Shown: in pieces, positions 3,474-24,507 of the stretch
Layout: each line of letters starts with the position of its first letter
How positions within the stretch are numbered: position 1 is the stretch's first letter
IMG/VR virus record: IMGVR_UViG_3300037067_013349
Reading direction: 5' to 3' (one strand)
DNA: 43,790 bases
Source of the DNA: an uncultured virus (IMG/VR IMGVR_UViG_3300037067_013349)
Taxonomy: Duplodnaviria > Heunggongvirae > Uroviricota > Caudoviricetes
Translations under genes and position numbers: made by a program
The notes under the pieces: generated by a model
What the model was told of the DNA's origin: nothing
Databases searched by the model: none
What the model saw: the letters and a program-made list of their open reading frames with translations, nothing else

Positions 3474-4279
3474 AGTTAGCATGGGCAAGCGACATACATC
3501 TGAACTTCGCTGATGATATACAACAGAGATGGTTTTTACACAATGCAAAAGAACGTGCTGACGCTTTAGTTATTAGCGGAGATATTGGGGAGAGTGAAAC
3601 GTTACATCAAACACTCAAACGAATCAGCAATATCTTCGGAAAGCCTGTTTATTTCGTGTTGGGGAATCATGATTTTTATAGGGGATCTATAGAACGAACG
3701 AAGCGTACGGCATCTAGGTGTGCATATACCACACAAAATATGTTCTACCTAAGCAACAATCCAACAATCGAATTGTCACCAACAACTGCGATGGTCGGGC
3801 ACGACGGATGGGCAGACGGTAGGTTTGGAAATTTTGATGATTCAGATGTCATTCTGAACGATTTTATATTGATCAAAGAGTTAGACTTCTATCAATATGG
3901 AGAGTTAGATAAAGAAGCAATGCGGCCAGTGCTTGAGAAACTCGGCGATGAAGCAGCACGGTATATCGCACTGGCTCTATTCTCAGCAGCACACAAATAC
4001 AAAAAGGTATATGTTGTAACACATGTACCACCTTTTCGTGAAGCCACATGGCACAACGGACAACAATCTGATGACAATTTTCTTCCATACTTCTCATGCA
4101 AGGCTATGGGTGACGCCATTCTGAAAGTCGCAAATGAATGTCCAAAATGCCAAATAGTTGTGCTATGTGGCCATACGCATAGCTCAGGTGAAGTAACTAT
4201 AGCTCCCAACTTGCAAGTCCTAACGGCACCAGGAAAATATGGCCACCCTGAAATATATCGCATATTTAATATTCAATAG
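3470..4279 (+). CDS. Calcineurin-like metallophosphoesterase
   Basis: SDIH, SGDIGE, GNHD, THVPP and CGHTH motifs. Confidence 0.9.
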   Translation: MKLAWASDIHLNFADDIQQRWFLHNAKERADALVISGDIGESETLHQTLKRISNIFGKPVYFVLGNHDFYRGSIERTKRTASRCAYTTQNMFYLSNNPTIELSPTTAMVGHDGWADGRFGNFDDSDVILNDFILIKELDFYQYGELDKEAMRPVLEKLGDEAARYIALALFSAAHKYKKVYVVTHVPPFREATWHNGQQSDDNFLPYFSCKAMGDAILKVANECPKCQIVVLCGHTHSSGEVTIAPNLQVLTAPGKYGHPEIYRIFNIQ

Positions 4280-5669: not shown

Positions 5670-8600
5670 CTATTCTTCGGCTGTCAAAATACCGTCCGTG
5701 AACGTTAATTTTCTCGTCGGTGATCCACCACTGGTATCTGAAACGTAATACACTTTCGTTCCAGCTAATCCTGATGGTACAGGACCAGTAGCACCAGAGG
5801 CACCAGCAATACCTGAGGCACCATCTATACCGGTTGCTCCTGATGCACCGTCTATGCCAGTGGCACCTGTAGCTCCAGTTTCACCTTGAGGCCCAGAAGC
5901 TCCGCCCGGATCACCTTGGGGGCCGGTTGCTCCTGATGCACCATCTATGCCAGTGGCACCCGTTAATCCAATGTCACCCTGAGGACCCGTTGATCCTGTA
6001 GCACCAGTAGCCCCCGTTAAACCAACAGGACCAGTCGAGCCAGTCGCACCAATGGCTCCCGTTTCGCCCTGAGGACCCGTTGATCCTGTAGCTCCCGTTT
6101 CACCCTGCGGACCAGAAGCCCCTCCAGGATCTCCCTGCGGGCCAGTAGCACCTGAGGCACCATCTATGCCCGTGGCTCCCGTTTCGCCCTGAGGACCCGT
6201 TGAACCTGTGGCTCCAGTTTCACCTTGAGGACCAGAAGCACCACCAGGATCGCCTTGGGGACCGGTAGCCCCTGTGGCACCCAGATCTCCTGTAGCTCCT
6301 TGAGGGCCAGTAGAGCCAGTGGCTCCTGTTTCACCCTGCGGACCAGAAGCACCACCAGGATCACCTTGGGGACCGGTAGCCCCTGTGGCACCGACTGAAC
6401 CCGGATCTCCTGTGGCTCCCGTGTCGCCCTGAGGACCGGTCGCACCGTCTATGCCAGTAGCACCTGTGGCTCCAGCTTCACCCTGTGGTCCGGAAGCCCC
6501 TCCGGGATCGCCTTGAGGTCCGGTGGCACCAGAAGCACCACTAGCGCCATCAATACCAGTAGCTCCTATTTCTCCTTGCGGACCGGTAGATCCTTGGACA
6601 CCGGTAGCACCAGAGGCACCGCTAGCTCCGTACGGACCCATTAAGCCTGTAGCGCCTGTTAAACCGATATCACCCTGCGGACCGGTAGCACCAGTAGCTC
6701 CCGTTTCACCTTGTGGTCCGGAAGCCCCTCCGGGATCGCCTTGAGGTCCGGTAGCGCCAGAAGCACCAGGATCTCCGGTGGCTCCGGTTTCGCCTTGAAC
6801 TCCACTGGCACCGTCTATGCCGCTTGCTCCTTGGACTCCACTAGCTCCATCGATACCGCTTGCACCGATATCACCCGTAGTTCCTGTTTCACCCTGAGGA
6901 CCCGTTGAGCCTGTGGCTCCCGTTTCACCCTGCGGACCAGAAGCCCCTCCAGGATCTCCCTGCGGGCCAGTAGCACCTGAGGCACCGGAAGCTCCCTGCG
7001 GACCGCTTGCACCAGTTGCGCCTGTCGCTCCTGTTTCACCCTGCGGACCAGAAGCCCCTCCAGGATCTCCCTGCGGGCCAGTAGCACCAGTTGCTCCTGT
7101 TTCACCTTGAGGGCCTGAGGCACCACCAGTATCACCTTGTGGGCCTGTAGCGCCTGAAGCCCCATCTATACCAGTTGCGCCTGCGTCACCTTGAGATCCT
7201 GTCGCACCGGTTTCACCTTGTACTCCTGATGCGCCTGCTTCTCCGGTTATACCGCTAGCTCCTTGAGTACCGGTAGCACCTGAAGCGCCTGAGGCACCAT
7301 CAATACCAGTGGCACCTGCTTCTCCTTGAGGGCCAGAAGCACCGCCAGTGGGACCTTGCGGTCCTGTAGATCCGGTTGCGCCAATATCACCGGTGTCGCC
7401 AGTGTGGCCAGTAGCCCCGGAAGCACCTGGAAAACCAGTATAACCTTGTTCTCCCTGTGGGCCAGTAGCACCTGAGGCACCACTGGCACCATCGATGCCG
7501 GTGGCTCCTGTTAGTCCAATGTCGCCTTGTACACCAGTAGCACCTGAAGCTCCTGAAGCACCAGTCAGACCAGCACCAGTCGCACCAGTGAGGCCAGTAA
7601 AACCTGTAGCACCAGAAGCACCAGAATATCCGGTATATCCACTAGCGCCTTGAGCGCCTGAAGCTCCTATACCAGAAGCTCCCTGGGTACCCGTAGCACC
7701 TGAAGCACCTGAAGCACCATCGATACCAGTGGCACCAGTAAGACCTGTTTCACCTTGTGGGCCTGTAGCACCTGAAGCCCCGCTAGCTCCATCGATACCA
7801 GTAGCACCCGTGTCTCCGACACCTGAGGCACCTTGGACACCCGTAGCACCTGAGGCACCTGAAGCGCCATCGATACCAGTGGCACCTGAAGGGCCAACAA
7901 GACCGGTAGCACCAGTAGCTCCCGTTAAACCAACAGGACCAGTCGAGCCAGTCGCACCTACGGGGCCACCAAATGGACCAGAAGCTCCCGTTAGACCAGT
8001 TGCTCCGACAGGACCAGTTGCGCCGGTAGCACCAGCTCCCTGAGGACCAGTACTACCGGTTGCACCTGCATCGCCATCAGCACCAGTTGCGCCGGTTGCA
8101 CCTGCATCGCCATCAGCACCAGAGGCTCCAGCATTTCCTTGAGAACCGGTTGCACCTGCGTCACCAGCAGCACCAGTCGAACCAGTTGCACCAGTAGGGC
8201 CACCAGAAGGACCAGTAGCGCCAGTCGGGCCAGTGATACTAACGCCAGTGGCCCCTGTTGCACCTTTGGAACCAGTAGCACCAGTTGATCCAGCGATACC
8301 GGTTGCTCCTGCTGGACCAGAGGCACCACCAGTTGGGCCTTGTATACCAGTAGCTCCGGTCAAGCCGGTAGCTCCAGCTACTCCAGTCGCCCCGTCACGA
8401 CCGATGCCTGTAGCACCAGTTGCACCAGCTACACCAGTTGAGCCACCTACACCAGTTGAGCCTGTTGAACCAGCAGGGCCGGAAGCTCCACCAGTAGGGC
8501 CGGTTGCTCCCGGCTGCCCGGCAGGACCAGAAGCACCATCAAGACCAACACCAGAGGCACCAACAGGACCACCAGGGCCGGTTGAACCTGTCGCCCCCGT

Positions 8601-11600
8601 TGGACCACCGCCAGGACCAGTAGCACCGGCGGCACCATCAGCACCAGTTGAGCCAGTCGCCCCAAGTCCGCTAGCACCCTGCGGGCCAGTTGAACCGGTA
8701 GCTCCGATTGGGCCACCAGCAGGGCCAGTTGCGCCAGTGAGTCCAATACCAGTAGCACCAGTAGCACCAGTCGGGCCACCAGAAGGGCCGGTAGCACCAG
8801 GAGTGCCAGTTGCACCTGTCGCTCCAATACCAGTAGCTCCAGTTGCACCAGGCAAACTGATTCCAGTCGAGCCGGTTGCTCCTGATGGACCAGACGCACC
8901 ACCAGTAGGACCGGTTGCTCCTATCGGACCCGTCGAGCCCGTGGCACCAGCTCCTGTCGCGCCGATAGGTCCGATTGGTCCCAGCGACCCTTGCGGCCCT
9001 GTCGAGCCAGTCGCCCCTGTCGGACCGCCGCTGGGGCCGGTAGCTCCAGCCGCACCGGTTGCTCCAGAAGCACCAATGATACCAGTTGAAGACCAAGATA
9101 GATTACGATAACCGTCTGTGACTAATACCTGACCGGCTGAGCCGTCGATATTTGGGAATCGCATGTTGCTAATAACAACATTCTTCCCGGTGCCCCATGC
9201 TGAGAGTTGTAAATCCTCCCCAGACACTGAATGGATGACCGATATTTGTAGGCCGCCTGCGTCATCGTATTGTAGCCCAGCACTATCAATTAAACGGCCG
9301 TGAGTACCAGCAAATGGTATCCTATTTGGTGTGAGCCGCGTCCCATCGTTCAGAATAAAGCCTTTACGAGCACCATTAGTTGTGATTGTAAAGTACAGAT
9401 CATCTTGTATGAATTCAACTGCACCAGCTTCTGGTACTGCTAGAACGTCACCAGACTCCATTTTCACCGGTGCATTACCTGGTGCAGCTTTACCAGCTTG
9501 AATATGCAATCTTGCAGTTGGATTATGTATGCCAATACCTGTTTGCTGCCCAGTGACCACAACCGTTTCATCCGCTCTCATTCGCTCCAGTGGATGATAG
9601 AAGTTGGTCAAACGAGTCGCGTTATATTCGGGAACACCAGCGTTATTGTCAAGAGTGACAGTCCCTAACCAGCGATATCCCTTATAGTTGCCACTGGCAA
9701 CGAAGACCGGGACGCCATCTAAGGTTGCAAGACCGTCTGAATCAACTTGTATCCAGTATCCCGCTGCCAAATCGTCCGCGAACACACCAGACGTATGACT
9801 AACGACGCAAGCATACGTGTAGGAATAGAGAACTCTTTGGCCTATTGAATATGATGTCGCGGTAGCCCAATCTTCAATACGGCTCTCAGAAACAGGAGTA
9901 TATTCAACATACTTCAATTCGCCAATAGTAGCAAACCATAGTTGATCTGCACCATCTATCTCCTGCATCGGATATGTGCACGCAGTCACATCAATGCGAT
10001 AAAATCGATATTCTATCGCATTATCGAAAGTGAAATAATCAGACCATATATCAACGCCAGATGGCGGGTCGACATCGGTTCTTGTGTCCAAGACCGACCA
10101 ATTGACATTATCATTCGAGCCAGAAAATGTCCATGTCCTTGGCAGTGATGGATAATAAAGCTTGGCTTTAAATGCGTATTTGTTGATAGCCTTCTTCACA
10201 TATGGACCAAAGTCATATGTGATCCACATAGGCGTTTGGAAAGGATCGCCTGGCGTGTAGCCAGTGCCACCAATTTGAACACCCCATCCCGGATTTCCAG
10301 GCGTGTCTTCTTGGTTGAAAGCGTACCAACCGTACAGATATGTGCCACCGACCTGGACACCAGTTGAACTGGTAATGACCATGTTTGGCGTGGGATCGAC
10401 AAACGACGTCATTACCGCTGTACATGTAGTCGTTCCAGTATTGTATATGCCATCAGACGGTACAAACTTCCAGGGTGCGAACTGAATGTCAAAAGACGTG
10501 GCGTTTACAAATGATGCGAAGACATCATATGTTCTATTGGCAATTAATGGATTTGCACCCATATCATTGACAATATTCGAAACTGTTGGGGCAGTAGCAA
10601 TATTGACGACATCCCAAACACTATTGGTGTCATCATATAACCTAATCAAACTTGATTCTACGAAATTCCAACTTAAAATGGTGGAGCTAGTTATTTTAAG
10701 ATTGCCGCCAACTATGTCGCTGTCAGCAGCGTCTCCGCCATTATCAACCCATGACAAATTACCATAGCCGTCTGTTTGTAGGACTTGGGTTGGAAGGCCG
10801 TTATCTCTTGGAAGATCAAGCGCACCTAATATAATATTACCAATCGTTCCTGCCGCGATTGAGATGTCGCCTGTGTCTTTCTTCCTCTCAACAATGTTGT
10901 AAAAATTGCCTATCAATGAGTTATTGAAATAAGGTGTACCAGCTATATCATATAACGACAATATCCCAAGCCATCTGTATCCTTTGAAATCTCCAGAATT
11001 GGCATAGACAGGAACACCATCAAAAACGCCTAGCCCACATGCTTCAACCAAAATCCACAAACCGCTTGCTAAATCTGTAGCAAAATCACCTGAAGTATGA
11101 GCAGAGAGGCATGCATAGACGCTATCGTGAATAACTCTATCGCCAACATTATAAGCTGTACCAGTTTCCCAATAGCTGGCTCTTGAATTAGCTGGAACAC
11201 CGCGTACGAGCTTAATCTCATTTAGCTCAACATACATCGCCCCATAACCAGCGTCTGCGGGGCAATTGGTGATGAGCTTATAATAGCGATAAGCTATTCC
11301 ATTAGAAAATGTATAATAAGCACTCCATGTTTGATCACCTGGGCCACTTATGCCGGTTCTCGAATCCAACAGAACGTAATCGACGCCGTTCTTTGAGCCG
11401 TAGAGGGAGAATTCGGTTGGAAACGCTCCATTGTCGTTTGCCCGTAAAGCATATTTATTAACAATGGTTGGAATGTTGAAGTCGTATTGTATCCAAGCTG
11501 AGGTAGCTAGCGGAATTGGTGTTGATGACCAGCAACGAGCCACATCGTCACTAAAAGCGTTCCAAGCATCATATAGTTCACTACTTGCACTACTGACCTG

Positions 11601-12926
11601 TGGTGCTGGCGTAGCATCAGATGTCATTGTCGTGGTGCATGTTGTAGTTCCAGGATTGTTAGCACCATCAACAGACACAACTTTCCATGGGGCGAAATCG
11701 ATATCAAACGCAGTCAGCGTACCATTATAGACGGCGAACACATCATAAACCAAATCTGACTCTAATGCATTACCACCTAAATCATTGGAAAGGTTAGAGG
11801 CAACAGGTTCAGTCGCTATATCGAGCAGCTCCCAAGCAAGCACGTCAGTATTATAGAGACGAATGTGACTTGAGGAATAGAAGCTCCAGCTTAGAACATC
11901 GCCAGCAGAAGCTTCTAATCGACCACCAACAGTATCACTGCTCTCGCCACCAGGCACAATCATGCTATTAACATAACGAACTGTCGCTACGTCATCTGCT
12001 ACTGATGGGGTCGGTGTGTGATTGTTGAGGAACTCGTTATCCGTCCCAAGATCGACCGCTGGAATGCGGAATGTATTATGATTAATGACGTTGTTGTCTG
12101 AACCAGAATCCAAGGTGAATGATGATCCGACAGCCCGCTCTACCAATGCGTTGTTCTCGATAGTATTGGAACTTGCACTTACGAGCTTTACAGCGTCCAA
12201 ATTGTCATCGATTTTGTTATAGTGCAGGACGTTGCTGTCTGAATTCTGAACATAAAAGCCAATAGTATTCGACTTAGATGTGCTCTCAGTGATTGAGTTA
12301 TTGTCAGAATAGACGATAGAAAAGCCCGTATTGACGTTAGAATCACTAATATTTTCTTCACCGTGGTTTCCGGTGGAGTTGAAAATACCGATACCATCGG
12401 CATTGTTTAAGGTTGTGTTATTCGAAATTGTGTTATCGTTCGAAGAATTCTTGAGTACGATGCCGTATTCGCGGTTGCCGTCACAAGTGTTATTAGTTAT
12501 GACGTTATTTCCGCTTCCAGTTAATTCGATACCGTTCTTATTCCCTGTGCACACGCACAAATCAATAGTAAAGACGTCTTCTGGAGATGAGTTATCAAGG
12601 AGAATACCAGCTTGGTTGTCTGTAGATGCTGTCACTGTGAATAACTTAAACATGCCGGACACAGCAGTAATCCGGACAGTCGGTGCAGACGTCCCATCTC
12701 CTCTAATAATCGTTGTTCGTGGATCGTCAGTATAAATATTGAGGATCTTGTTGATTGTTAGATTCTCGGTATATGTCCCCGGCCTGACGTAAATAACGTC
12801 TTTCTCAATAGCAGCATTAATAGCCGCCTGGATAGTAGTGTATTCATCATAGTCAGTAGAACCGACGCTGATGGTGTAATCAGCAGTTGCTTTAGTGACT
12901 ATTCTGTCGGTATTTCTTAACGTCAT
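5670..12926 (-). CDS. Collagen-like tail fibre / virion surface protein with a right-handed beta-helix, two discoidin(F5/8)-like plus CBM5/12-like modules, and about 1100 aa of G-X-Y repeats
   Basis: [22 protein letters not shown] followed by GI.L..S.NN.I.NN repeats; WIQYDF..NKY..P....GS....W..LD.R..YRYY twice; W.TGTAY.VG.RV..YAC..HTSG twice; GAT/GAS/GPQ repeats. Confidence 0.85.
5775..9075 (-). repeat. Collagen G-X-Y coding repeat region
   Basis: Recurring [23 protein letters not shown] units; GC-rich periodic DNA. Confidence 0.9.
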
Positions 12927-15409: not shown

Positions 15410-15711
15410 GCCTTAGCACCATCACAATAACGCGGCAGTGCCCAGTCATTGATTATTTTGTCGTTCTACCGAACAACATCGAATCGAAGGCTACTGCTGT
15501 GCCCGTTGCTGGCTTTGTAGCGGCCACAGGCGGCGTTGTGAATAGGCTGTCTCAGGCGAGCAATCAAGGCAGACATGGCTATCGATTCGGCACTCAAGAA
15601 TGGGTTGAGTTATCCGAAGCTATTGGCGGTTCAAATGCAGCGTTGGAAGCTGGTAAGACCCTGTATGGCACTAACGTGCGAACCGACAAGCCTAAGCCAT
15701 GGGAAAGCTAG
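15406..15711 (+). CDS. Hypothetical protein
   Basis: Coupled ORF, convergent with kdsB. Confidence 0.65.
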   Translation: MSLSTITITRQCPVIDYFVVLPNNIESKATAVPVAGFVAATGGVVNRLSQASNQGRHGYRFGTQEWVELSEAIGGSNAALEAGKTLYGTNVRTDKPKPWES

Positions 15712-16478
15712 AACGGGCGATTCATTCTAATAACGAACGCCATATAATCTTCTTTAGTATCGATACCATAAGTGGGTTCGTTGGCGATTCCTACTAAGAT
15801 TTTATGACCAAAATAGAGTGCCCGTAGTTGTTCAAGACTCTCCATAGTCTCCATCTGGCATGGAGGATGTTGGACGAGTTTTAATAAGAAATCTCGCCTA
15901 TAAGCATATACACCCACGTGCCGATAAAAAATGGTTCGCAGGAATTGACTGTTATCGGGTTCTGTGCCACCGTCTAATATGCCAGGATATGGAACAGGAC
16001 CTCGGCTGAAATACAACGCCCTGTTCTCATGATCCAGAACAACCTTCACACAAGATCGGTTGCAAAGCTGCGACAGTGAGCGAATCGGAGAAGCAATTGT
16101 ACTCATCACTTCTGCTGGATTCTCTTTGAGTAGCTTGACGGCCAAATCGATCAATGAACCCTTTATCTCAGGTTCATCAGCTTGCACATCGACGATGATA
16201 TCAGCGTCGGCGTGATCTGCAATTTTACTAGTAGCTAATGCTACTCTTTCCGTGCCATTCTCTGCCGCACCGGTCATCACGACGTCTCCGCCGAATGACT
16301 CTACTTCCTTACGAATAGCCTCGTCATCAGTCGCAACGCACATACCTGTCGAATATATAGATTGCATCGCTGACTGATAGGTATGGTGCAGAACAGATTT
16401 GCCGGTATTACGCAACAGAAGTTTACCGGGCAAACGAGACGAGCCCATACGAGCAGGAATGATAATTTTACACTTCAA
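15708..16478 (-). CDS. kdsB: 3-deoxy-manno-octulosonate cytidylyltransferase (CMP-Kdo synthetase)
   Basis: IIPARMGSSRLPGKLL, VATDD, GTERVA, VQADEP, VKVV..ALYFSR, HVGVYAYR, ESLEQLRAL, GIDTKED motifs. Confidence 0.93.
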   Translation of the reverse strand: MKCKIIIPARMGSSRLPGKLLLRNTGKSVLHHTYQSAMQSIYSTGMCVATDDEAIRKEVESFGGDVVMTGAAENGTERVALATSKIADHADADIIVDVQADEPEIKGSLIDLAVKLLKENPAEVMSTIASPIRSLSQLCNRSCVKVVLDHENRALYFSRGPVPYPGILDGGTEPDNSQFLRTIFYRHVGVYAYRRDFLLKLVQHPPCQMETMESLEQLRALYFGHKILVGIANEPTYGIDTKEDYMAFVIRMNRPF

Positions 16479-16491
16479 GGGCTGGATACTC

Positions 16492-17982
16492 CCTGTAGTC
16501 CTGTAATTGCTTGGGAACGAACACTGTTCTCCCTTTTATGTGGAGTAGTTCCGCGTCGACCTGTAGCCCTGTAATCCTAACGCTATTCTCATTATCACTT
16601 CAACATTTCAGAAAAATCCTGCAGCCCTATCGATCCGGCCATCTTCACTGTTTGCGCCTGTAGTCCTGTAATTGCCTAGTAGTTACCTCCATTGCGAAGA
16701 GGCTTTGTGACGTTAATCACGACCTGTAGTCCTAACGCTATTCTCCATTTTACCGAGAACGAAATGGCCCTTTCCCTGTAGTCCTAATGCTTCATTCGGC
16801 ACCCTACTTCACCTGTAGTCCTAACGCTATTTTCATTAATCGTATCAAAGTCGTAATCGAGCGACCTGTAGTCCTGTAACGCTATTCTCCATTGCGATCA
16901 ATCGCTACACGCGGCGGCAAACCTGTAGTCCGCAGGGTAGCCACTACGAACAGATGGACCTGTAATCCTGGAAACGAACGCTCTATTTGGGAGCCTGTAG
17001 TCCTAACGCTATACCAGAAGTATGGCGACCTGTAGTCCTGTAGTTACCTGGGAACGAACGTTATTCTCCATTGCTTCTCCGAAGCACCTTCGGAATGTGG
17101 AACCTGTAGTTACCTGGGAACGAACGCTATTCTCCATTGACGGTCGCTTCAAGCAATATATGGGACTCCTGTAGTCCTGTAATCCTGGGAACGAACGCTA
17201 TTCTCCATTTGGGAAGGCGATACTCAACAGCATTCTGCACCTGTAGTTACCTGGAACGAACGCTATTCTCCATTCACTTCGGTTGAAGTCTGGTCCACCG
17301 CTGACCTGTAGTTACCTGGGAACGAACGCTATTCTCCATTAAAACCGAGCATACCATCTCCCCTGTAGCTGCTAAGCAAATACGCCATGGGAGCCTGTAG
17401 TCCTGTAGTTCTAATGCTGTTCTCCATTCATAAACACAAACCGCATAAATCGGAGTGTCCTGTAATCCTGTTTTGAGCCTGCCGTATCAGATTCCTGTGA
17501 CCCTGTAGTCCTTCTCCATTTTACTCGGTCAGATAGGCTCCATGTGACTTACCTGTAGTCCTGTAATTCAAGCGGGCCAAGAATACATCCTGTAGTTACC
17601 TGAGAACGAACGCTACTCCATTTTTCAGAAGAGATACATCATCCTGTAGTCCTGTAGTTTACCTGGGAACGAACGCTATTCCATTTGCCGCAAATTCGAC
17701 AGGCTATACGATCTCCTGTAGTCCTGTAGTTACCTTGGGAACAAACGTTATGCTCCATTAAACTGGGAACGAACGCTATTCTCCATTAGTTGCTCGACTC
17801 GCTGTTCGGTCTGCGCCCTGCAGTTACCTGGGAACGAACGCTATTCTCCATTTGGCGCGTCCGTGATCTATATGCCTGTAGTCCTGTAATCCTGGGAACG
17901 AACGCTATTCTCCATTGCTTTGGCTAGTGAAGTCTTCTAGCTTGGTCCTGTAGTTACCTGAGAACGAACGCTATTCTCCATT
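16492..17982 (-). CRISPR. CRISPR-like array 1: about 27 degenerate repeats; full repeat 36 nt (+ strand CCTGTAGTTACCTGGGAACGAACGCTATTCTCCATT); spacers mostly 27-31 nt
   Basis: Perfect 36-mers at 17103 and 17305; variants beginning CCTGTAGTCCTGT or CCTGTAGTCCTAA; unique spacers between them. Confidence 0.9.
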
Positions 17983-17989
17983 TCGCTAT

Positions 17990-18547
17990 TTAGGTTGTTT
18001 CCGGCATCTTGTCTTTCTGCACGGCCTCGGTAGCAATAGCATATTGCAGCCTGACATAGCTCGAAGCCAATATCAGAAGCGTGTTGAGATTGACGGTGAT
18101 TTTCTCCTTGGGACATTCCAGGTGCACCAGTATCTCATCATTGACCTTTCGGCCTTTTATCTCAACCGCTCCAACTTCGTTGTTCAAAATCTTGCCGTTG
18201 ATCCAAGCGGTGACGCCGTGACCGCTTGGATCGGCCCAATCGTCCGACAGACCGGCAGCCGCCATGAAAGCCAAAAGGCTTTTGCCCTCTGGCGATCGTG
18301 CTAAGCTAGAAGACATTCCAGAAGGTTTAGGGAACTTTACTGGAAGCCTCACCACTATTTCGCGCTCCACAGGAGTTTCGTCGTCTCCGAATTTGACTAT
18401 CCATACTTCCGTGGGCGGATCAGAGGTATGGCAGAGTCGAACCAGCGATATGAGTTGAGCCTTACCTTCGAGTTCCCGATACTCGCTGAGAGACCGCTGC
18501 TTTTTGTAAATGGAGCACAAATCTCCACGCTTCAAAACTGACTTCAC
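17990..18547 (-). CDS. Hypothetical protein between the arrays
   Basis: 185-aa ORF, GGGGAG Shine-Dalgarno, stop 7 nt before array 1. Confidence 0.75.
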   Translation of the reverse strand: MKSVLKRGDLCSIYKKQRSLSEYRELEGKAQLISLVRLCHTSDPPTEVWIVKFGDDETPVEREIVVRLPVKFPKPSGMSSSLARSPEGKSLLAFMAAAGLSDDWADPSGHGVTAWINGKILNNEVGAVEIKGRKVNDEILVHLECPKEKITVNLNTLLILASSYVRLQYAIATEAVQKDKMPETT

Positions 18548-18618
18548 ATTACTACTCCCCTTGAGCCATTGAAAATCATCATTGATGTCCGTATCTTTTT
18601 ATAGCTCGACGAATAGGG

Positions 18619-19140
18619 TCAATTAGCTTCGAGTTCAATTATCTTAGCTTGAAGCTCGGCAATTTGCGCCCGAAGAGCCTCGTTCTCCGCTTCCAGTGTC
18701 TTGATGCGGGCTAAAAGCTGGTCCTGGACTGCCTGCATCGACGCCTTGACCTTGCGGGCTTCCTTATATGGGTCGGCTGGCTTGGCCCGGCGACGACGTG
18801 GCGGAACGTCGGATTTCGTCTTGGCGAGCATACCGTTGTACATGTCGCGAAGCTTGCCATCCTTCCATTGATATTCTTCCGGATAATGATTGAGCATCAT
18901 CCGTAATTCGGAGAAGGTCAAGCAAAGGTCGCTGACATATTCATCCAGGATGGCCAGAAGCTTGTTGTTGTCCAGGATCTCGTTGTCGGCCCGAAAGTCT
19001 GGGTCTTCATAGACACTGTTCAATAGAGTTGCCCGCCGATAGGCATTATGGCCACTCGACTGCTGCAGCTTCCGGACTTGCTGTAAGAGCTTCTTGTACT
19101 GCCTTTTGCAGCGTGGCTGGGTTGGTGCGGTCGACCTCAT
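18619..19140 (-). CDS. Hypothetical protein with C-terminal coiled coil
   Basis: AAGGAGG upstream; LLARIKTLEAENEALRAQIAELQAKI heptads. Confidence 0.75.
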   Translation of the reverse strand: MRSTAPTQPRCKRQYKKLLQQVRKLQQSSGHNAYRRATLLNSVYEDPDFRADNEILDNNKLLAILDEYVSDLCLTFSELRMMLNHYPEEYQWKDGKLRDMYNGMLAKTKSDVPPRRRRAKPADPYKEARKVKASMQAVQDQLLARIKTLEAENEALRAQIAELQAKIIELEAN

Positions 19141-19252
19141 CGATAGTCCTCCTTAGTCTTTTATGGAAAGCTGATAGTTGTGCACATTGGCGACAGCAAA
19201 ACTTCTTGTTGCCGTTCAATGGTGTCTTACATACTGGACATAAACCTGTCAT
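19046..19252 (-). CDS. Small zinc-ribbon protein (CPVC...KFCCRQC)
   Basis: CxxC plus FCxxxC motif; overlaps the next ORF. Confidence 0.45.
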   Translation of the reverse strand: MTGLCPVCKTPLNGNKKFCCRQCAQLSAFHKRLRRTIDEVDRTNPATLQKAVQEALTASPEAAAVEWP

Positions 19253-19295
19253 TGTGCGTATTAGAGAACCTGTAGTTATCGCGTTACGGGCTTCG

Positions 19296-19691
19296 TTACT
19301 GTAATCCTGCTTCTGCGTTTTGTTCCTCGACAGGCATATCGACCTCTATCAACTCCTTGACGCCAAGCTGAGAGGTCGTTACTCTTATCGCATTGTTGAC
19401 GATATCCCAAATCTTTACTTCGCGTTCAACTATCCCTTGGCAGTTGCAGTGTACTAAACCGCTCATTCTTACAGATACACAGCAACCGGTTGGGTTGTCC
19501 AGATGTACCTTGAATTGTCGGCGCTCATAATCCTGCCAAGCCCAAATTCGCTTGCCGCAAATCTCGCAGCGCGTTATAGCTGGATAACCGTGCCAATTTG
19601 GATCAAACCAAAGTAAAGCTGCCTTGCCGATAACTATCCCAACAAGAATGCATACTGCAAGTATCAAAAACTTAATCACGTAAATTCTCAT
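19296..19691 (-). CDS. Hypothetical membrane-anchored Cys-containing protein bounded by repeat cores
   Basis: N-terminal TM helix, CEICG; repeat-like core at 19709 upstream and at its own 3' end. Confidence 0.6.
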   Translation of the reverse strand: MRIYVIKFLILAVCILVGIVIGKAALLWFDPNWHGYPAITRCEICGKRIWAWQDYERRQFKVHLDNPTGCCVSVRMSGLVHCNCQGIVEREVKIWDIVNNAIRVTTSQLGVKELIEVDMPVEEQNAEAGLQ

Positions 19692-19720
19692 ATGCGCCGT
19701 TCGGAGCCCCCGCAGTCCTG

Positions 19721-19900
19721 TTATGTTGTCTGCAAGAAGTCTCTCATTTCGATCAATTCATCAACACTTCTGAATGACATTTGGTAGCCATCCTTTTCTA
19801 GTATGAGAATCAATCCTTGCAGCATAAGCTTGAGTCGTCGAAAATTTTCCACATTGTTTAAAAATACGAGAAGTTCGTGACGCCACGAGTTTGGCACCAT
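19721..19900 (-). CDS. 59-aa ORF exactly filling the space between two repeat units
   Basis: Hand-translated MVPNSWRHELLVFLNNVENFRRLKLMLQGLILILEKDGYQMSFRSVDELIEMRDFLQTT*; ATG abuts repeat 19901, TAA overlaps core 19709-19721. Confidence 0.55.
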   Translation of the reverse strand: MVPNSWRHELLVFLNNVENFRRLKLMLQGLILILEKDGYQMSFRSVDELIEMRDFLQTT

Positions 19901-20581
19901 CCTGCAGTCCTGTAGTTACCAAACACTGGATTTCCAAACGAGATTTATTAAACCTGTAGTCCTGTAGTCTAATGCTATACTCCATTGTATCGCTATGTCG
20001 CTACTTTGCGAAGAGCCTGTAGTCCTGTAGTTACCGAACGCTATTCTCCATTTTCACGTTCCACTCGATCTTGTTGAAACTCCTGTAGTCCTGTAATCAT
20101 AACGCTATCCCAAAATGTCAGGAGGGCGTCATTAGTCCTGTAGTCCTGTAGTTACCTGGAAACGAAATTTCACCACAAAACCGAATTTTCAAAGAACTCC
20201 TGTAGTCCTGTAGTCCTAACGCTATTCTCCATTACCGTAATTTATGGGGTACCTGTAGTCCTGTAGTCCTAATGCTATTCTCCATTCATACATTCATGTA
20301 TTTTGGCGGCAATGCTCCTGTAGTTACCTGGGAACGAATGCTATTCTCCATTTGAGCAAGATCGAGCTGTGCACCGGCATTTCCTGTAGTTACCTGGGAA
20401 CGAACGCTATTCTCCATTTGTCAACAACGCTGGTATACTCCGATTCCTGTAGTCCTAATGCTATTCTCCATTTGAGAAGTGGAACGGCCTGTGCTTCAAT
20501 GCCTGTAGTCCTGTCCTATAGTCCTAACCTGTTCTCCAGAGGTTCTTACCACCTGTAGTCCTGTAGTCCTAACGCTATTTT
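19901..20581 (-). CRISPR. CRISPR-like array 2: about 12 repeats of the same family
   Basis: Repeat starts at 19901, 19953, 20016, 20082, 20137, 20199, 20252, 20317, 20383 (perfect 36-mer), 20446, 20502, 20552; spacers mostly 27-32 nt. Confidence 0.9.
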
Positions 20582-20743
20582 TCACCATTTTTTACTGCAA
20601 AGAGCCAAAGCAATGTATGTCACTCCTATGAGAATCTGCAACCCCCAAAAGGTCCAAATTCTGATGACACCCATTACCAATAAAATGGCAAACGCTACAT
20701 TCGATATTCCAGACAGCATATCGACAATTTTTCTTCTGGTCAT
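20582..20743 (-). CDS. 53-aa two-TM membrane protein between repeat units
   Basis: Hand-translated MTRRKIVDMLSGISNVAFAILLVMGVIRIWTFWGLQILIGVTYIALALCSKKW*; degenerate repeat catgtagtaccttgaaacgctatt immediately upstream. Confidence 0.55.
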   Translation of the reverse strand: MTRRKIVDMLSGISNVAFAILLVMGVIRIWTFWGLQILIGVTYIALALCSKKW

Positions 20744-20847
20744 AATCCATGTAGTACCTTGAAACGCTATTAGGTGGTTCCCATCGCCTAACTATTGTCT
20801 TCCTCTTCCCTCAAGTGTTGTTACTCATGATTCAAGAGCAAGTGCTA

Positions 20848-21399
20848 CCTGTAGTCCTGTTATACTTCTTCTGGCAGCCTGAAAATATTAACCCACCTGC
20901 CATGGATTTTTGTTTTGCGCTTCACCAATTCGCCCGGTGTTCTAGCCAATGCTGCCATCACGCGGTCTGATGTTTTTGTGCATTCATGTGGCCACCCCAG
21001 CCGCTCGGCTATCAAATGTAACAACCCCTCGTCACCAAACATGACGGCTGGATTGTCCGTTTCTCTCAGCACTTCAACAGCAGCATCACATGCTCGCATG
21101 TTTGAACCATCTAATCTTAGCGGCCTGCAGTCCTGTTATTCAATCAATCAACGTGAAAAAGGGCGGACGACCTGTAGTCCTGTTATTTGCCATGTGTCGT
21201 CTGACTCACTTCACATGTATAATATATAAAATTCAGCTTGTGCTTGTCCTGCAGTCCTTAATACCGTGTCCCAAAAGGCGGTGTCCATTGATGGAAAAGG
21301 ATATAAATGCAAACTATTTCTGCCGCGAACGTCAAATTAAATGATACAAGCGATAGTAACGTTGAATGCCAATAAGTGGCGGGACAAGTCCTGTAGTCC
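20848..21399 (-). repeat. Dispersed minimal repeat cores CCTG(T/C)AGTCC(TGT) at 20848, 21124, 21171, 21248, 21390
   Basis: 10-13-nt matches to the conserved end of the array repeat, same orientation. Confidence 0.75.
20860..21099 (-). CDS. Hypothetical protein flanked by repeat cores
   Basis: 79 aa; stop overlaps CCTGTAGTCCTGT (20848-20860); core at 21124 upstream. Confidence 0.65.
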   Translation of the reverse strand: MRACDAAVEVLRETDNPAVMFGDEGLLHLIAERLGWPHECTKTSDRVMAALARTPGELVKRKTKIHGRWVNIFRLPEEV

Positions 21400-21407
21400 G
21401 TATCCGT

Positions 21408-21436
21408 ATTATATACTACTATAAAGTGGCTGTCAA
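21408..21436 (-). promoter_or_regulatory. Perfect sigma70 consensus promoter (TTGACA-17 bp-TATAAT) pointing into the repeat region
   Basis: + strand tgtcaa at 21431-21436 and attata at 21408-21413, 17-nt spacing; predicted start about 21401, just before the first core. Confidence 0.85.
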
Positions 21437-21452
21437 GTCTACAGCACTTTGT

Positions 21453-22598
21453 TCATTGCCTAACCGTAACGTCGATATCAACCTTGTTACAAGATCGTTG
21501 AATCAACGACTGCATTTGTTGCCAGTCCCATCGAGTCGTCTCGGTGTCACCAATACGTCCAGCATATGACAAATAGTAATCGGTGGGCGGGGCGAAAATG
21601 ACAAGATGACCGATGCCGTTTGTCACTAACAATCTCGTCACGTCATTGGCGAGATGAGTGCTCCAGGTCTTGATGAAATCACGCCAACGCCGCTCATATT
21701 TCGCTTTGTCGGCGGTCGAGCCCTGCTTCCTAGTCTTCTTGCTCTCCTGAATGTCCAAGGTGTTTCGTGTGTGCTCGACATCTTCGCCACGGCGAAGACG
21801 GAATATGGTTCTGCCATTGAACCGAAAAGAAAATGGCCGGTGTTGTGCTGCCAATAGGAATGCAGTCTTGTTCTTGTTAAGCGGCAGTCTCACCTTCGGA
21901 ATTGAATGACAGAGATAAGCTTGCCATCGACCGTCGCGTTCCTTCAAATCGACGCCCTTCAACTCCCATTCGCCAGCCGTAATTTTCCACAACGCATCGC
22001 GGACAGAATGTAACCGGTAGCTCTTGGTCTTGATGACGAAAACCATCGGACCGTAGCCGTCAACATCGACCTCAAGCTTCCAGTCTTCATCCTTGGTTTG
22101 TGGGACGATGATCCGACAATCTCGTTTGTGCAGCGGAATATTGCTGCGTTTGGACGATTGCGAAAGACCACCACAGCCAGCGAGAACGGTTATCCAGCGT
22201 GGATAAGCTGATCTGTATCCACGGTGGTGTAACAAATCCTTAACCGCCTTATGCACCGCCAACTTACCCTCTCTGCCCATTAATGGGTGCTCGGCTGCAA
22301 TGATTTCGTCAAGCTGCTGAGCGATTTCGTCGCTGTAGGGGTCGACTGGGCATCGAATGCGAGGACCGACTCTGCTTTCCGGCTCATAGAGCCATCGTTT
22401 GTCCTGTTCGAGCCATTCACGAACCAATAGGTGGTTATTGGCGTCAAAATGAAGCTGTAGCCAAGCCGACATGAAATCGTTGACAATTTGTTGAATGTCG
22501 GTGGCCAGTGAGAGCAAATGCTTTTTGTGCGACTTGAAGCTGTCGTCACTACCGATCAAATCAACCCGTTTGTTCTTGATGACTCGGAAATCTCCCAT
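21453..22598 (-). CDS. cas12f: Cas12f/TnpB-family protein B, predicted nuclease-dead and C-terminally truncated
   Basis: LWKITAGEWELKGVDL..DGRWQAYLCH WED signature; RuvC-I position reads TAFLLAA, RuvC-II position HLVIFAP; WDWQQMQSLIQ..DIDV ends the protein; clear paralog of 22825..24240. Confidence 0.75.
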   Translation of the reverse strand: MGDFRVIKNKRVDLIGSDDSFKSHKKHLLSLATDIQQIVNDFMSAWLQLHFDANNHLLVREWLEQDKRWLYEPESRVGPRIRCPVDPYSDEIAQQLDEIIAAEHPLMGREGKLAVHKAVKDLLHHRGYRSAYPRWITVLAGCGGLSQSSKRSNIPLHKRDCRIIVPQTKDEDWKLEVDVDGYGPMVFVIKTKSYRLHSVRDALWKITAGEWELKGVDLKERDGRWQAYLCHSIPKVRLPLNKNKTAFLLAAQHRPFSFRFNGRTIFRLRRGEDVEHTRNTLDIQESKKTRKQGSTADKAKYERRWRDFIKTWSTHLANDVTRLLVTNGIGHLVIFAPPTDYYLSYAGRIGDTETTRWDWQQMQSLIQRSCNKVDIDVTVRQ

Positions 22599-22611
22599 AT
22601 TGTCTCCATAA

Positions 22612-22687
22612 AGGTAACTCTGGCGAGGGCTAACACGGTACGGAATGCCCGCAGCTATTCTCGCCTTCGAGACGTACAGGACGCCTC
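22612..22687 (-). ncRNA. tracrRNA-like RNA copy 1 (3' tail AGUUACCU)
   Basis: 76-nt repeat; 5' hairpin GAGGCGU-CCUGU-ACGUCUC; GGCGAG/CUCGCC stem; tail complementary to repeat AGGUAACU. Confidence 0.75.
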
Positions 22688-22705
22688 TATTTGTGATTTA
22701 TAAAA

Positions 22706-22781
22706 ACAGGACTCTGGCGAGGGCTGACACGGTACGGAATGCCCGCAGCTATTCTCGCCTTCGAGACGTACAGGACGCCTC
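22706..22781 (-). ncRNA. tracrRNA-like RNA copy 2 (3' tail AGUCCUGU followed by a U-run)
   Basis: Near-identical 76-nt copy; tail complementary to repeat ACAGGACU. Confidence 0.75.
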
Positions 22782-22824
22782 CGGTTGTGATTCTGGATAT
22801 TAGTAGCGTGAAAGTAACTATTAA

Positions 22825-24240
22825 TTAACTATCCCGATTTTCGGATTTAATCTGCAGTCCCGGTTCGTCGTCTTCCTTCTTCCGCGACTTGCCTCCTTGC
22901 TTAATGACCACATTTATACCAGCAGCCTTACCAACTTGCTCCAACTGGCGTTGCATATGGTACCAGTCCCATGCCGTCGATTCGCTACGGCCTATCTTAC
23001 CAACATGGGACAAATAGCGGCTATCACGCCATTTCCCGGTCGGTTGATAAGTCACGAGACGCCCAATGCCGAATTTGACACAGGTACTGATGACTTCTGC
23101 GGCCCAATTGTTGTTGAAGGTTTTGGTCCGATTGCGCCAATTGCGTTCCGATTTCTTTCGCCAGTCATGAACCTTACGGCCATGATTCTTACGAGCACTG
23201 GAAGCATACTTGTAGCTTTCGTTCTTACCAAATCGTTGAAGCGTCAAAGAACGACGAGCCCGTTTAATATGCTTGCAACTTCGCATTCGCATTTGCGTCT
23301 TGCCGTTGATGCGGAACAGAACAGCACCATATCGACCGGCTGATACGATAGCCGTTTTGGTGCTGCTGAACGATGCCGTGACGCCAGGAATCAGGTAGCA
23401 TATATCAGCGTACCACTTTCCTTCGAACTGGACGAGTTGGGAAGTGTTGAGAATATAATCGCCAGATGCAATTTTCCACAACACGCGACGAATTGGCGAC
23501 AACTTACGCCCACCGGTGGTGAGCCTAAACGTCATCGGACGTAGGAACCTTTTACCCTCAATCTTTTCATAGCGAACGGTCAGCTTCCATGGCTCATCAT
23601 TGCTACGGGGCACAACAAGATTGCTGTTGCTTGTATAGAATGGAACAGGTAGAGGCTTAGACGATTGTGGGTATTCTCCAAGCCCTGTTAAAATCCTAAA
23701 CCATCGTTTGTATTTGGATTTCGTCGCTGGTGCTTTGATAAGCGTCTTGCTAAGCCGATTGGTTACAATGCCAATCGGCTTAGTTCCAAGATTGGCATGC
23801 TGGGTGGTCAGCAGGCCATAGATCTGAATCCCCATTTCGTTGGTGTATGGCTGCACAGGGCATTTGATACGTGGCGGTATATCAACCTTAGGTTGATCTG
23901 ACGCCTTCTTTTTGCCGTTCTTGCCCTTCTTGCCATTTTTCTCGGCTTTTTGAGCCGCTGCCAGCTTGGCGTATTTCCGTGCCCACTCTTTGTCCTCCTC
24001 AATCCATTTGCGAAGGGCGGTTGGCGATCCAGCCTGTCGGTGCAATCGGAACCATTGACTATAAAAGTCGTTGGTAATTTGCTGCATCTGGCATGATAAC
24101 ATCACCAGACGTCTTTTCTCCTCGGCAAAATCGCCGTCACAGCCGCTCAATTCGACCCGAATGACTTTGGTGAGTCCATCAGGCTTCTTTTTACGCGGCT
24201 TCTTCGGGTCGTCTTTCACGGTCGTCTTCTTCTTACTCAT
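22825..24240 (-). CDS. cas12f: Cas12f/TnpB-family protein A, predicted nuclease-dead and C-terminally truncated
   Basis: TKVIRVEL N-terminal strand; KIASGDYILNTSQL..GKWYADICY; bridge region KYASSARKNHGR...RNRTKTFNNNWAAEVI..GIG; WDWYHMQRQLEQVGKAAGINV; GIDLG site reads IVSAG, EDL site reads YQP; no CxxC finger or RuvC-III. Confidence 0.8.
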   Translation of the reverse strand: MSKKKTTVKDDPKKPRKKKPDGLTKVIRVELSGCDGDFAEEKRRLVMLSCQMQQITNDFYSQWFRLHRQAGSPTALRKWIEEDKEWARKYAKLAAAQKAEKNGKKGKNGKKKASDQPKVDIPPRIKCPVQPYTNEMGIQIYGLLTTQHANLGTKPIGIVTNRLSKTLIKAPATKSKYKRWFRILTGLGEYPQSSKPLPVPFYTSNSNLVVPRSNDEPWKLTVRYEKIEGKRFLRPMTFRLTTGGRKLSPIRRVLWKIASGDYILNTSQLVQFEGKWYADICYLIPGVTASFSSTKTAIVSAGRYGAVLFRINGKTQMRMRSCKHIKRARRSLTLQRFGKNESYKYASSARKNHGRKVHDWRKKSERNWRNRTKTFNNNWAAEVISTCVKFGIGRLVTYQPTGKWRDSRYLSHVGKIGRSESTAWDWYHMQRQLEQVGKAAGINVVIKQGGKSRKKEDDEPGLQIKSENRDS

Positions 24241-24260
24241 TTAACATTCCCTATTGAAAA

Positions 24261-24336
24261 ACAGGACTCTGGCGAGGGCTAACACGGTACGGAGTGCCCG
24301 CAGCTATTCTCGCCTTCGAGACGTACAGGACGCCTC
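24261..24336 (-). ncRNA. tracrRNA-like RNA copy 3 (3' tail AGUCCUGU followed by a U-run)
   Basis: Third 76-nt copy directly upstream of effector A. Confidence 0.75.
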
Positions 24337-24507
24337 CGGTTTTCATGTAGGTTTATAGCTCCCTGCTGATGGTTGATTAACTTAAATCACCTGCGAGCTA
24401 CTTCTGTTATAGCCTCAGTGAAGCTATTAATTAACTGACTGAGCACATATTTCTCTGGGTTAAATCGTAGCAACCGTCGTGCTATAAGTACTATAGGGAG
24501 CCAAAAA

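Follow-up and report, generated by a model that had tools for sequence, protein, structure and literature searches.

Retention of a putative tracr-pairing handle in decaying CRISPR repeats next to Cas12f-fold genes of an uncultured phage

The stretch of DNA analyzed here (43,790 nucleotides (nt), hereafter the window) derives from an uncultured virus of the Caudoviricetes, IMG/VR record IMGVR_UViG_3300037067_013349, and harbors a CRISPR array, array 1, in which many repeats are reduced to their 3' end, the handle. The array lies downstream of two genes for Cas12f-fold proteins that lack catalytic parts of the RuvC domain, on the same strand as these genes and as three structured copies of an RNA resembling a trans-activating CRISPR RNA (tracr), which is complementary to the handle in two separate segments with compensatory changes among related systems. 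We regard it as reasonably probable that these elements form a giant-phage CRISPR system based on a non-cutting miniature Cas12f, in which selection retains the tracr-pairing handle while the rest of the repeat decays.

Array 1 and the Unequal Loss of Its Repeats

16492..17982, minus strand: CRISPR array 1, 27 units, leader-proximal end at 17982; many units reduced to the 3' handle

The full repeat reads CCTGTAGTTACCTGGGAACGAACGCTATTCTCCATT on the plus strand (36 nt), corresponding to AATGGAGAATAGCGTTCGTTCCCAGGTAACTACAGG in the minus-strand reading; the 27 units open on the plus strand with CCTG[TC]A[GA], and the spacers of the intact units are 29–31 nt long. The region 16478–17990 does not contain any open reading frame (ORF) of at least 100 amino acids (aa), so that the array 1 stretch is non-coding. 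The array cannot be attributed to chance, since a probe consisting of the repeat's first 23 nt, allowing three mismatches, hit the window 10 times and had no hit in 100 shuffles; furthermore, the 10-mer CCTGTAGTCC (at most one mismatch) occurs 44 times on the plus strand of the window and twice on the minus strand. Repeats of a single length and unique spacers of similar length are found in the intact units, and 16 of the 27 units deviate from this scheme. Tandem Repeats Finder detected 8-nt periods only, and a repeat search split the array into 15 families. According to these data, array 1 is confirmed as a real interspersed repeat array.

The retention of the repeat was then counted position by position, in the minus-strand numbering, over all 39 units of the two arrays of the window (array 2 is described below). 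The last 8 nt, ACTACAGG, are retained in 33–39 of the 39 units, the far end (positions 1–16, the CTCCATT end) in 23–30, and the middle (positions 17–28) in 14–22. Considering array 1 alone, the handle is missing in one repeat out of 28 (17760–17787, the sole headless repeat seen), and the middle in 14. The original prediction on this array, drawn from the sequence alone, was that the CCTGTAG end is nearly always kept, and the counts for the last 8 nt agree with it. It had also proposed that the units range from the full 36 nt down to a few nt; indeed, five head-only units, at 16618, 16922, 17362, 17459, and 17552, preserve 9, 10, 7–11, 12, and 17 nt of the repeat, respectively, and include all four units that had been named. 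The further statement that the middle and the CTCCATT end are deleted in many different ways holds in part: both are often lost, but the far end less often than the middle, and many other units carry internal deletions with both repeat ends present, but the deletions are not all different, a 27-nt short form (plus strand CCTGTAGTCCTAA[CT]GCTATTCTCCATT) recurring about 12 times in the two arrays and therefore having been copied rather than deleted anew each time.

Moreover, CCTGTAGT, at the conserved end, is duplicated in tandem as an exact 8-nt copy in 11 of the array 1 units. The decay is most advanced in the left, leader-distal half of the array, where none of the 11 units between 16492 and 16994 preserves at least 30 of the 36 repeat positions, versus 11 of the 16 units from 17029 on. 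Throughout the arrays of the window, at least 19 nt separate the end of every handle from the next one, which leaves room for a guide.

A Tracr-Like RNA Complementary to the Handle

24257..24337, minus strand: tracr-like element A, tail AGUCCUGU followed by a U run
22702..22782, minus strand: tracr-like element B, tail AGUCCUGU and then a U run; fits the ACAGGACU-ACAGG handles
22609..22688, minus strand: tracr-like element C, tail AGUUACCU; matches the AGGUAACU-ACAGG handles

The tracr-like element is about 80 nt long and occurs in three minus-strand copies located before the two Cas12f-fold genes. Related loci were found both via a protein search and via the tracr pattern, and the consensus fold of 13 tracr copies from eight loci (three from the window and ten related ones) consists of two hairpins with 19 pairs, six of which show compensatory changes; the hairpins are followed by a single-stranded tail and usually by a U run. 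Probing Rfam with the whole window at gathering thresholds did not retrieve any match, which implies that the tracr does not belong to any family described there.

Two segments of the element are complementary to the repeat: the hairpin 1 loop, CCUGU, to its five final nt, ACAGG, and the 3' tail to the 8 nt preceding them. Two handle types and two tails coexist in the window, ACAGGACU arising by the 8-nt duplication or occurring in short forms. The loop pairing is complete (5/5) in all 39 array units, and the tail pairing (8/8) in 30 of them, 22 with tail A/B and eight with tail C; six of the remaining nine units form seven tail pairs and the other three form six, five, and four, respectively, so that 37 of the 39 units have at least six. 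By comparison, random 13-mers of the window reach at least six tail pairs in 0.29% of cases and the full loop pairing in 0.39%. The substitutions observed in the handles of the window, namely A to G at −8, −5, and −3 and C to U at −7, preserve pairing in every case, A-U becoming G-U and C-G becoming U-G.

The analysis of the related systems revealed six different tails (AGUCCUGU, AGUUACCU, AGUCACCU, ACUUGCCU, AGUCACCC, and AAUUCCUU), each pairing with its own repeat over 8/8 tail and 5/5 loop positions. The tail-repeat pairs of related loci are the following:

AGUCACCU with AGGUGACU, 8/8
ACUUGCCU with AGGCAAGU, 8/8
AGUCACCC with GGGUGACU, 8/8
AAUUCCUU with AAGGAAUU, 8/8

The loop varies in step with the repeat end as well (CCUGG with CCAGG, CCUGC with GUAGG). 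The window thus contains a separate putative RNA gene that is complementary to a portion of the repeat, in three structured copies and with covariation over six systems. The original prediction had identified the kept part of the repeat with the tracr-pairing segment, and this is supported by the 8 + 5 nt complementarity and by its covariation over the six tail types.

Two related loci, L007 and L016, contain one tracr fused via about 4 nt to the handle GACTACAGG and to a guide-like sequence (L007 1956–2060, corresponding to L016 minus strand 4008–4110); judging from its sequence, this copy appears to be a natural single guide that shares its locus with split tracr and array units. Handles that are solitary or truncated at the 5' side of the repeat also occur in L007/L016, L008, and L018, and the arrays of L021 and L015 are clean. 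Two spacers of one L016 array (minus strand, 5728 and 6091) differ at one of 24 nt, which suggests that units were duplicated inside arrays.

Strand and Leader End

The Cas12f-fold genes, the U runs of the tracr copies, and the pairing fit the minus strand only. RNAduplex, run on tracr and repeat in the four strand combinations, returned similar energies with large loops and no discrimination; the strand is settled by the covariation. The array is thus read on the minus strand, which the original prediction had not specified, and the conserved handle forms the repeat's 3' terminus, immediately 5' of the guide, in the type V arrangement of CRISPR RNAs (crRNAs) and unlike a type II 5' end. In the closest relative, an IMG/VR record whose flanks are 80–85% identical to those of the window, a tracr is followed about 20 nt later by an array and then by the cas gene; the syntenic array of the relative is clean, with 10 perfect repeats. 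At the leader end, the following sequence was recognized by eye, and a related one, also found by eye, flanks the corresponding end of arrays in the relative:

17983..18012, minus strand: conserved short sequence directly upstream of the first repeat, overlapping the 3' end of a 185-aa ORF

Cas12f-Like Effector Genes

22825..24240, minus strand: P0001, Cas12f-fold protein of 471 aa (PADLOC, profile, Foldseek)
21453..22598, minus strand: P0002, Cas12f-like paralogue of 381 aa, sharing 32% identity and the same end point with P0001

The presence of a Cas12-fold effector beside the array emerged from three approaches. PADLOC assigned P0001 to Cas12u3 at 1e-12 and to Cas12f at 6e-11, and flagged P0002 weakly; the family profile of P0001 matched AsCas12f in the PDB at an E value of 2.6e-19; and the predicted model of the protein (predicted local distance difference test, pLDDT, of 73) retrieved with Foldseek AsCas12f at an E value of 4.7e-18, as well as the dCas12f structures 9n9m and 9n9c. 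The profile match ends about 60 residues before the end of the AsCas12f chain, which implies that the zinc finger and the RuvC-III part are missing. In addition, the alignments of P0001 place a serine at the catalytic aspartate of the wild-type DLG motif (RuvC-I) and do not place any acidic residue at the position of the RuvC-II glutamate. The RuvC D-E-D triad and the C-terminal part were not found in P0001, with the same outcome in an 11-member alignment, and P0002 is likewise without the C-terminal part. Both proteins are devoid of the RuvC acidic residues and of the C-terminal zinc-finger/RuvC-III part and, on the basis of their sequences, are very probably nuclease-dead.

At E ≤ 1e-30, the profile search for the family yielded 199 protein clusters, which resemble one another in length; ten sampled clusters had no name and came from metagenomes only. 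The family was not found in 185,579 species genomes, where the protein-pattern scan and the degenerate tracr pattern both gave zero matches. The tandem pair of the P0001/P0002 type is conserved in five related loci (the pairs including L005, L007/L016, L008, and L018), and a single gene is present in five others. Cas12f works as a dimer, and, by analogy, a P0001–P0002 heterodimer is conceivable.

A further gene could be associated with the system:

18619..19140, minus strand: coiled-coil protein of 173 aa, located between the two arrays, with homologues near the system in five other loci

These homologues (L016, L018, L021, L015, and L001/L005) share 37–90% identity with it, and PADLOC returned only weak coiled-coil matches. 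Its recurrence suggests a possible accessory gene of the system.

Array 2, Solitary Handles, and Neighboring Genes

19901..20590, minus strand: CRISPR array 2, same repeat, 12 units, two of full length and seven in the 27-nt short form
19709..19721, minus strand: solitary handle ACAGGACU-GCGGG, located 17 nt upstream of the ATG that opens ORF 19296–19691
20848..20860, minus strand: solitary handle, 8/8 tail pairs and 5/5 loop pairs
21124..21136, minus strand: solitary handle, 8/8 tail pairs; loop paired, with one G-U
21171..21183, minus strand: solitary handle, 8/8 tail pairs and 5/5 loop pairs
21248..21260, minus strand: solitary handle, six tail pairs; loop paired, with one G-U
21390..21402, minus strand: solitary handle, five tail pairs and 5/5 loop pairs, just 3' of a consensus promoter match
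21408..21436, minus strand: sigma-70-type promoter match, TTGACA-17-TATAAT, 12/12

Six handles thus stand outside the arrays, all on the minus strand and between 19709 and 21402. Four of them read ATAACAGGACTRCAGG, and their match to the A/B tracr tail thereby runs into the U run. The perfect 12/12 promoter match is expected, according to our own estimate, about 0.003 times in 8.3 kilobases (kb), and the transcription start predicted from it would coincide with, or slightly precede, the solitary handle 21402–21390; as far as the sequence can tell, it may drive a stand-alone guide, or a transcript into array 2. Promoter-like matches overall are not enriched, seven being observed versus 10.7 expected. 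By eye, an ORF of about 49 codons with a hydrophobic product can be seen on the minus strand at 20592–20741, between array 2 and a degenerate terminal repeat (20745–20770).

The window is phage-like, with methylases and many ORFs without a family. Comparing 24 kb of the window with 50,697 phage records by megablast gave no match, and a tRNA scan of the window found none. A tail-fibre-like protein of 2418 aa (5670–12926) harbors beta-helix, F5/8 type C, and CBM5/12 domains and long collagen repeats, the collagen part raising the G+C content to 62%. The start of a phage-borne kdsB gene (CMP-Kdo synthetase, 15708–16478) and the last unit of array 1 are 13 nt apart, and the homologue of this gene in the relative is interrupted by about 440 base pairs (bp) with a small ORF (L001 2389–2826).

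A Possible Route from Repeats to Handles

Cas1, Cas2, and Cas4 were not detected in any of the 35 window ORFs that reach 100 aa, and a cas1/cas2 adaptation module is therefore missing from this set; Cas1 was also absent from all four related phage records, one of which is 100% complete by CheckV.

In principle, we can depict the following scenario. The tracr-like RNA of about 80 nt, with its two hairpins and 3' tail, would provide the scaffold, and each array unit would contribute just a short handle and a guide. The last five nt of the handle, ACAGG, would pair with the loop of hairpin 1 to give a pseudoknot, and the preceding 8 nt with the tracr tail, so as to rebuild the guide-pseudoknot-stem layout of TnpB omega-RNAs and Cas12f guides; the remaining 23 nt of the repeat would stay outside this pairing. 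In the absence of a Cas1–Cas2 complex requiring the whole repeat, deletions would be tolerated in those 23 nt as well as at the distal end of the spacer before them, whereas those hitting the handle would be purged by selection, and older units would shrink over time to a handle and a guide. The loaded complex would most likely bind DNA without cutting it and block the transcription of rival phages or host genes. From these elements we infer that the array is transcribed and processed, that truncated units are loaded, and that the complex binds DNA and represses targets.

The original proposal that selection acts on guide loading rather than on Cas1–Cas2 integration fits with the failure to find Cas1 and with handle substitutions that keep their pairs, but it is reached indirectly, and the copied deletion forms weaken the statistics. 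This last aspect is the first of several that weigh against selection on the handle: the recurrent truncated forms spread by copying, so that the independent handle-sparing events are far fewer than 39. Handle-less units, moreover, are hard to recognize, the one at 17760–17787 being the only visible case, and two of the five head-only units come after a full 30–31-nt spacer, which is not an obvious prediction of random deletion. In L016, some full repeats precede spacers that measure just 7 and 11 nt, so that deletions also destroy guides there. The contact itself, at 8 + 5 bp, would be short, and the ends of the tracr are predicted ones. A relative, G001, possesses 8-nt-duplicated handles but only a UUAC-type tail in the 185 kb examined (51% of its genome); the neat correspondence between tails and handles of the window is therefore not universal.

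Furthermore, no target was found for any spacer. The comparison of 45 window guides with the window and the related loci gave only overlaps with repeats, and that of 118 guides from all loci with the DNA of the window and of all related loci gave only self matches; array 1 against the collection of 50,697 phage records, with E up to 10, gave four matches at E = 5, which we took as chance, and one 24-nt spacer gave no match in IMG/VR.

A broader interpretation, which we advance only tentatively and hold to be possible rather than probable, is that of a naturally split omega-RNA. A free scaffold of about 80 nt would turn any transcript carrying an 11–13-nt tag (8 nt for the tail and 5 nt for the loop) into a guide for a pair of non-cutting Cas12f proteins; the arrays would then need neither true repeats nor Cas1–Cas2, and their units might shrink to tag and guide or stand alone behind a promoter of their own, such as the 12/12 match at 21436–21408 that precedes the tag 21402–21390. 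The two tag classes would be served by the two tails, the second class having originated from the 8-nt tag duplication, and the family of 199 clusters would represent a gene-silencing device widespread among phages, whose crRNA handle would be the smallest natural one known.

Alternative Explanations

The alternative that best withstands the data, and that we nevertheless deem unlikely, is that the array is a dying relic without useful guides, whose handle survives by mutational bias or by the copying of shortened units rather than by selection. Such a relic would account for the recurrent deletion forms and the mixed order of the unit types, for the near-identical duplicated spacers of L016, which speak of unit copying, for the 7- and 11-nt spacers of the same locus, and for the spacer targets that were not found. 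It would not account as readily for the fact that every handle substitution retains a pair, nor for the uneven loss in array 1, where the handle is missing in one of 28 repeats versus 14 for the middle; both the cas-like genes and all three copies of the tracr are intact, the same truncated units appear in runs of other studies, and the change of tail A/B to match the duplicated handle would be hard to explain if the array were dead.

According to a second possibility, the units were made short from the beginning: a non-canonical spacer insertion would duplicate only the 8–13-nt handle, and the 8-nt tandem copies (exact in 11 units of array 1) would be insertion footprints rather than signs of decay. 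We consider this improbable. It would explain why the spacer sets of the window and of its 80–85% identical relative are wholly different even though no Cas1 was found, and why two head-only units come after full 30–31-nt spacers; however, the handle at 16618 differs at three of 13 positions from its presumed template at 16657 and resembles the handle on the other side, the short units are concentrated in the leader-distal, presumably older, half of the array, and an insertion of this kind cannot generate the internal deletions with both repeat ends kept that are seen in many units.

It is even less credible, in our opinion, that the motif has its main role outside RNA pairing, for instance as a promoter, as a ribosome-binding region of minus-strand genes, or as a site bound by a protein, with the array as a by-product. 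This idea draws on the intergenic solitary copies, one of which precedes a start codon by 17 nt, on the array-1 unit that abuts the kdsB start, where the AGG-rich end could serve as a Shine-Dalgarno sequence, and on the 12/12 promoter match adjoining one solitary copy. The motif is not itself a promoter, though, as the hexamers lie upstream of it, and promoter-like matches are fewer (seven) than the 10.7 expected. Nor would a fixed protein or ribosome site change together with the loop and the tail of the tracr in six systems.

That the irregular units are assembly or sequencing errors in a repeat-rich region, one condition under which the original prediction would have failed, is largely refuted, and we assign it a very slight probability. 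In favor of such errors, the window comes from a metagenome, and repeats pose difficulties to assemblers. The region was compared with contigs from sequencing runs. Run X1, possibly the source sample of the window itself, contains 92% of the sampled words of 16300–24400, and its Logan contigs show no difference from the window over 16300–17058 and 17311–17851, the stretches with the most decayed units; the parts of array 1 outside the listed contigs are 17058–17311 and 17851–17887. Identical pieces outside X1 come from runs of two other studies. A 151-nt contig of X4, which belongs to another study, covers 17525–17675 without differences, truncated unit 17552 included, and X4 is also identical at 19686–19945 and 19988–20214; in array 2, the identity extends to X2 (19870–20062) and X3 (20039–20272). 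Truncated units that are letter-identical in independent contigs are not an assembly artefact, and similar short units occur in the related record and in other relatives. X1 does contain variant arrays, its contigs carrying other spacers at array positions 17074–17165, 17137, and 17341, and one of these spacers is also found in L007; this indicates that sister strains with different spacer sets coexist in X1 and points to population spacer turnover.

Finally, a type II (Cas9) array on the plus strand, with CCTGTAG as the repeat 5' end pairing with a Cas9 tracrRNA, would suit the 36-nt repeat, the 30-nt spacers, and the lack of a strong internal hairpin, but it is refuted by the strand of the covarying pairs and retains practically no probability, given that Cas9 and the HNH/RuvC domains of Cas9 were not found among the window ORFs, that there is no opposite-strand anti-repeat within three mismatches, and that the Cas12f-fold genes, the tracr, and the covarying pairs demand the minus strand.

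Significance and Comparison with Known Systems

If selection does preserve the handle alone, these arrays represent a natural experiment on how much of the repeat a tracr-dependent type V system needs, namely a pseudoknot strand and a short stem strand of about 13 nt in all. Three stages of guide RNA would stand side by side in related phages: split tracr with full repeats, split tracr with minimal tags, and a fused single guide. This would also bring to light, in giant phages, a family of Cas12f-like proteins that are non-cutting, lack annotation, and may silence host or rival genes; repeat-based CRISPR finders would under-call such arrays, and the combination of a short tag and a compact scaffold would be of interest for small programmable DNA binders.

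Array-associated dCas12f with a C-terminal truncation removing part of RuvC, together with vestigial arrays and chimeric guides, has been published (PMC13472631, doi 10.1038/s41586-026-10166-7, Nature 2026). Array-associated dCas12f itself is therefore already known, and the repeats cut to the tracr-pairing handle are a variant of it. According to the accessible parts of that paper, the two share the miniature Cas12f fold, the C-terminal truncation, the position beside CRISPR arrays, and a proposed repression of transcription, and they share vestigial arrays and single chimeric guides in one locus, here in L007/L016. The assignment to dCas12f, as defined in the same parts, rests on the Cas12f fold and on the truncation that removes part of RuvC, both found here. 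The accessible parts of the paper describe single guide RNAs and no tracrRNA-like species for those systems, whereas a separate tracr of about 80 nt is present here in several copies and the carriers are giant phages known from metagenomes only. A sigma-factor domain, as in dCas12f-sigma-E systems, was not found by Pfam among the 35 window ORFs.

Huge phages have been reported, in the accessible parts of PMC7162821 (Nature 2020), to carry new type V-F subtypes, almost all without Cas1, Cas2, and Cas4, and one Cas14 without a catalytic residue, proposed to act as a repressor. The system of the window resembles this "dCas14" in being a type V-F variant with missing catalytic residues and without adaptation genes found. 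The same parts do not describe a two-part tracr pairing or repeats reduced to the handle, and they report compact phage arrays (median of six repeats) versus the 27 + 12 units of the window. Moreover, a literature search that did not extend to supplements retrieved no paper on repeats reduced to the tracr-pairing segment. Nor does the system correspond to a TldR, which has a single omega-RNA-like guide and no array: here a separate tracr accompanies two arrays, of 27 and 12 units, a fused guide occurring only in L007/L016.

The delocalized crRNAs of CRISPR-associated transposons, as presented in the accessible parts of PMC11656645, likewise consist of out-of-array guides with a partly matching repeat, in nuclease-defective type V or type I systems without an adaptation module. 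Those are single conserved homing guides, whereas the shortened units of the window are dozens in arrays plus six outside them, without a transposase context. The viral mini-arrays and single repeat units treated in the same parts of that work are similarly virus-borne, without an adaptation module, and presumed to act in virus-virus or virus-host conflict; unlike the system described here, which has its own effector and tracr and was not found in the genomes of 185,579 species, they copy the host repeat and rely on host Cas proteins.

A structural parallel that can be drawn concerns the guide RNAs of TnpB and Cas12, in which, according to the accessible parts of PMC10097598 (Nature 2023), the pseudoknot beside the guide is conserved. 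As in the omega-RNA and in the Cas12f guide depicted there, the nt located 5' of the guide would pair with a distant 5' region, and the next segment would form a stem with the tracr-like part. Unlike in the omega-RNA of those parts, the scaffold would here be split, with a crRNA side of about 13 nt and a hairpin loop as the pseudoknot partner, as the covariation suggests. The corresponding parts of the omega-RNA are, again in the accessible text, joined by a tetraloop, as they appear to be in the fused copy of L007/L016.

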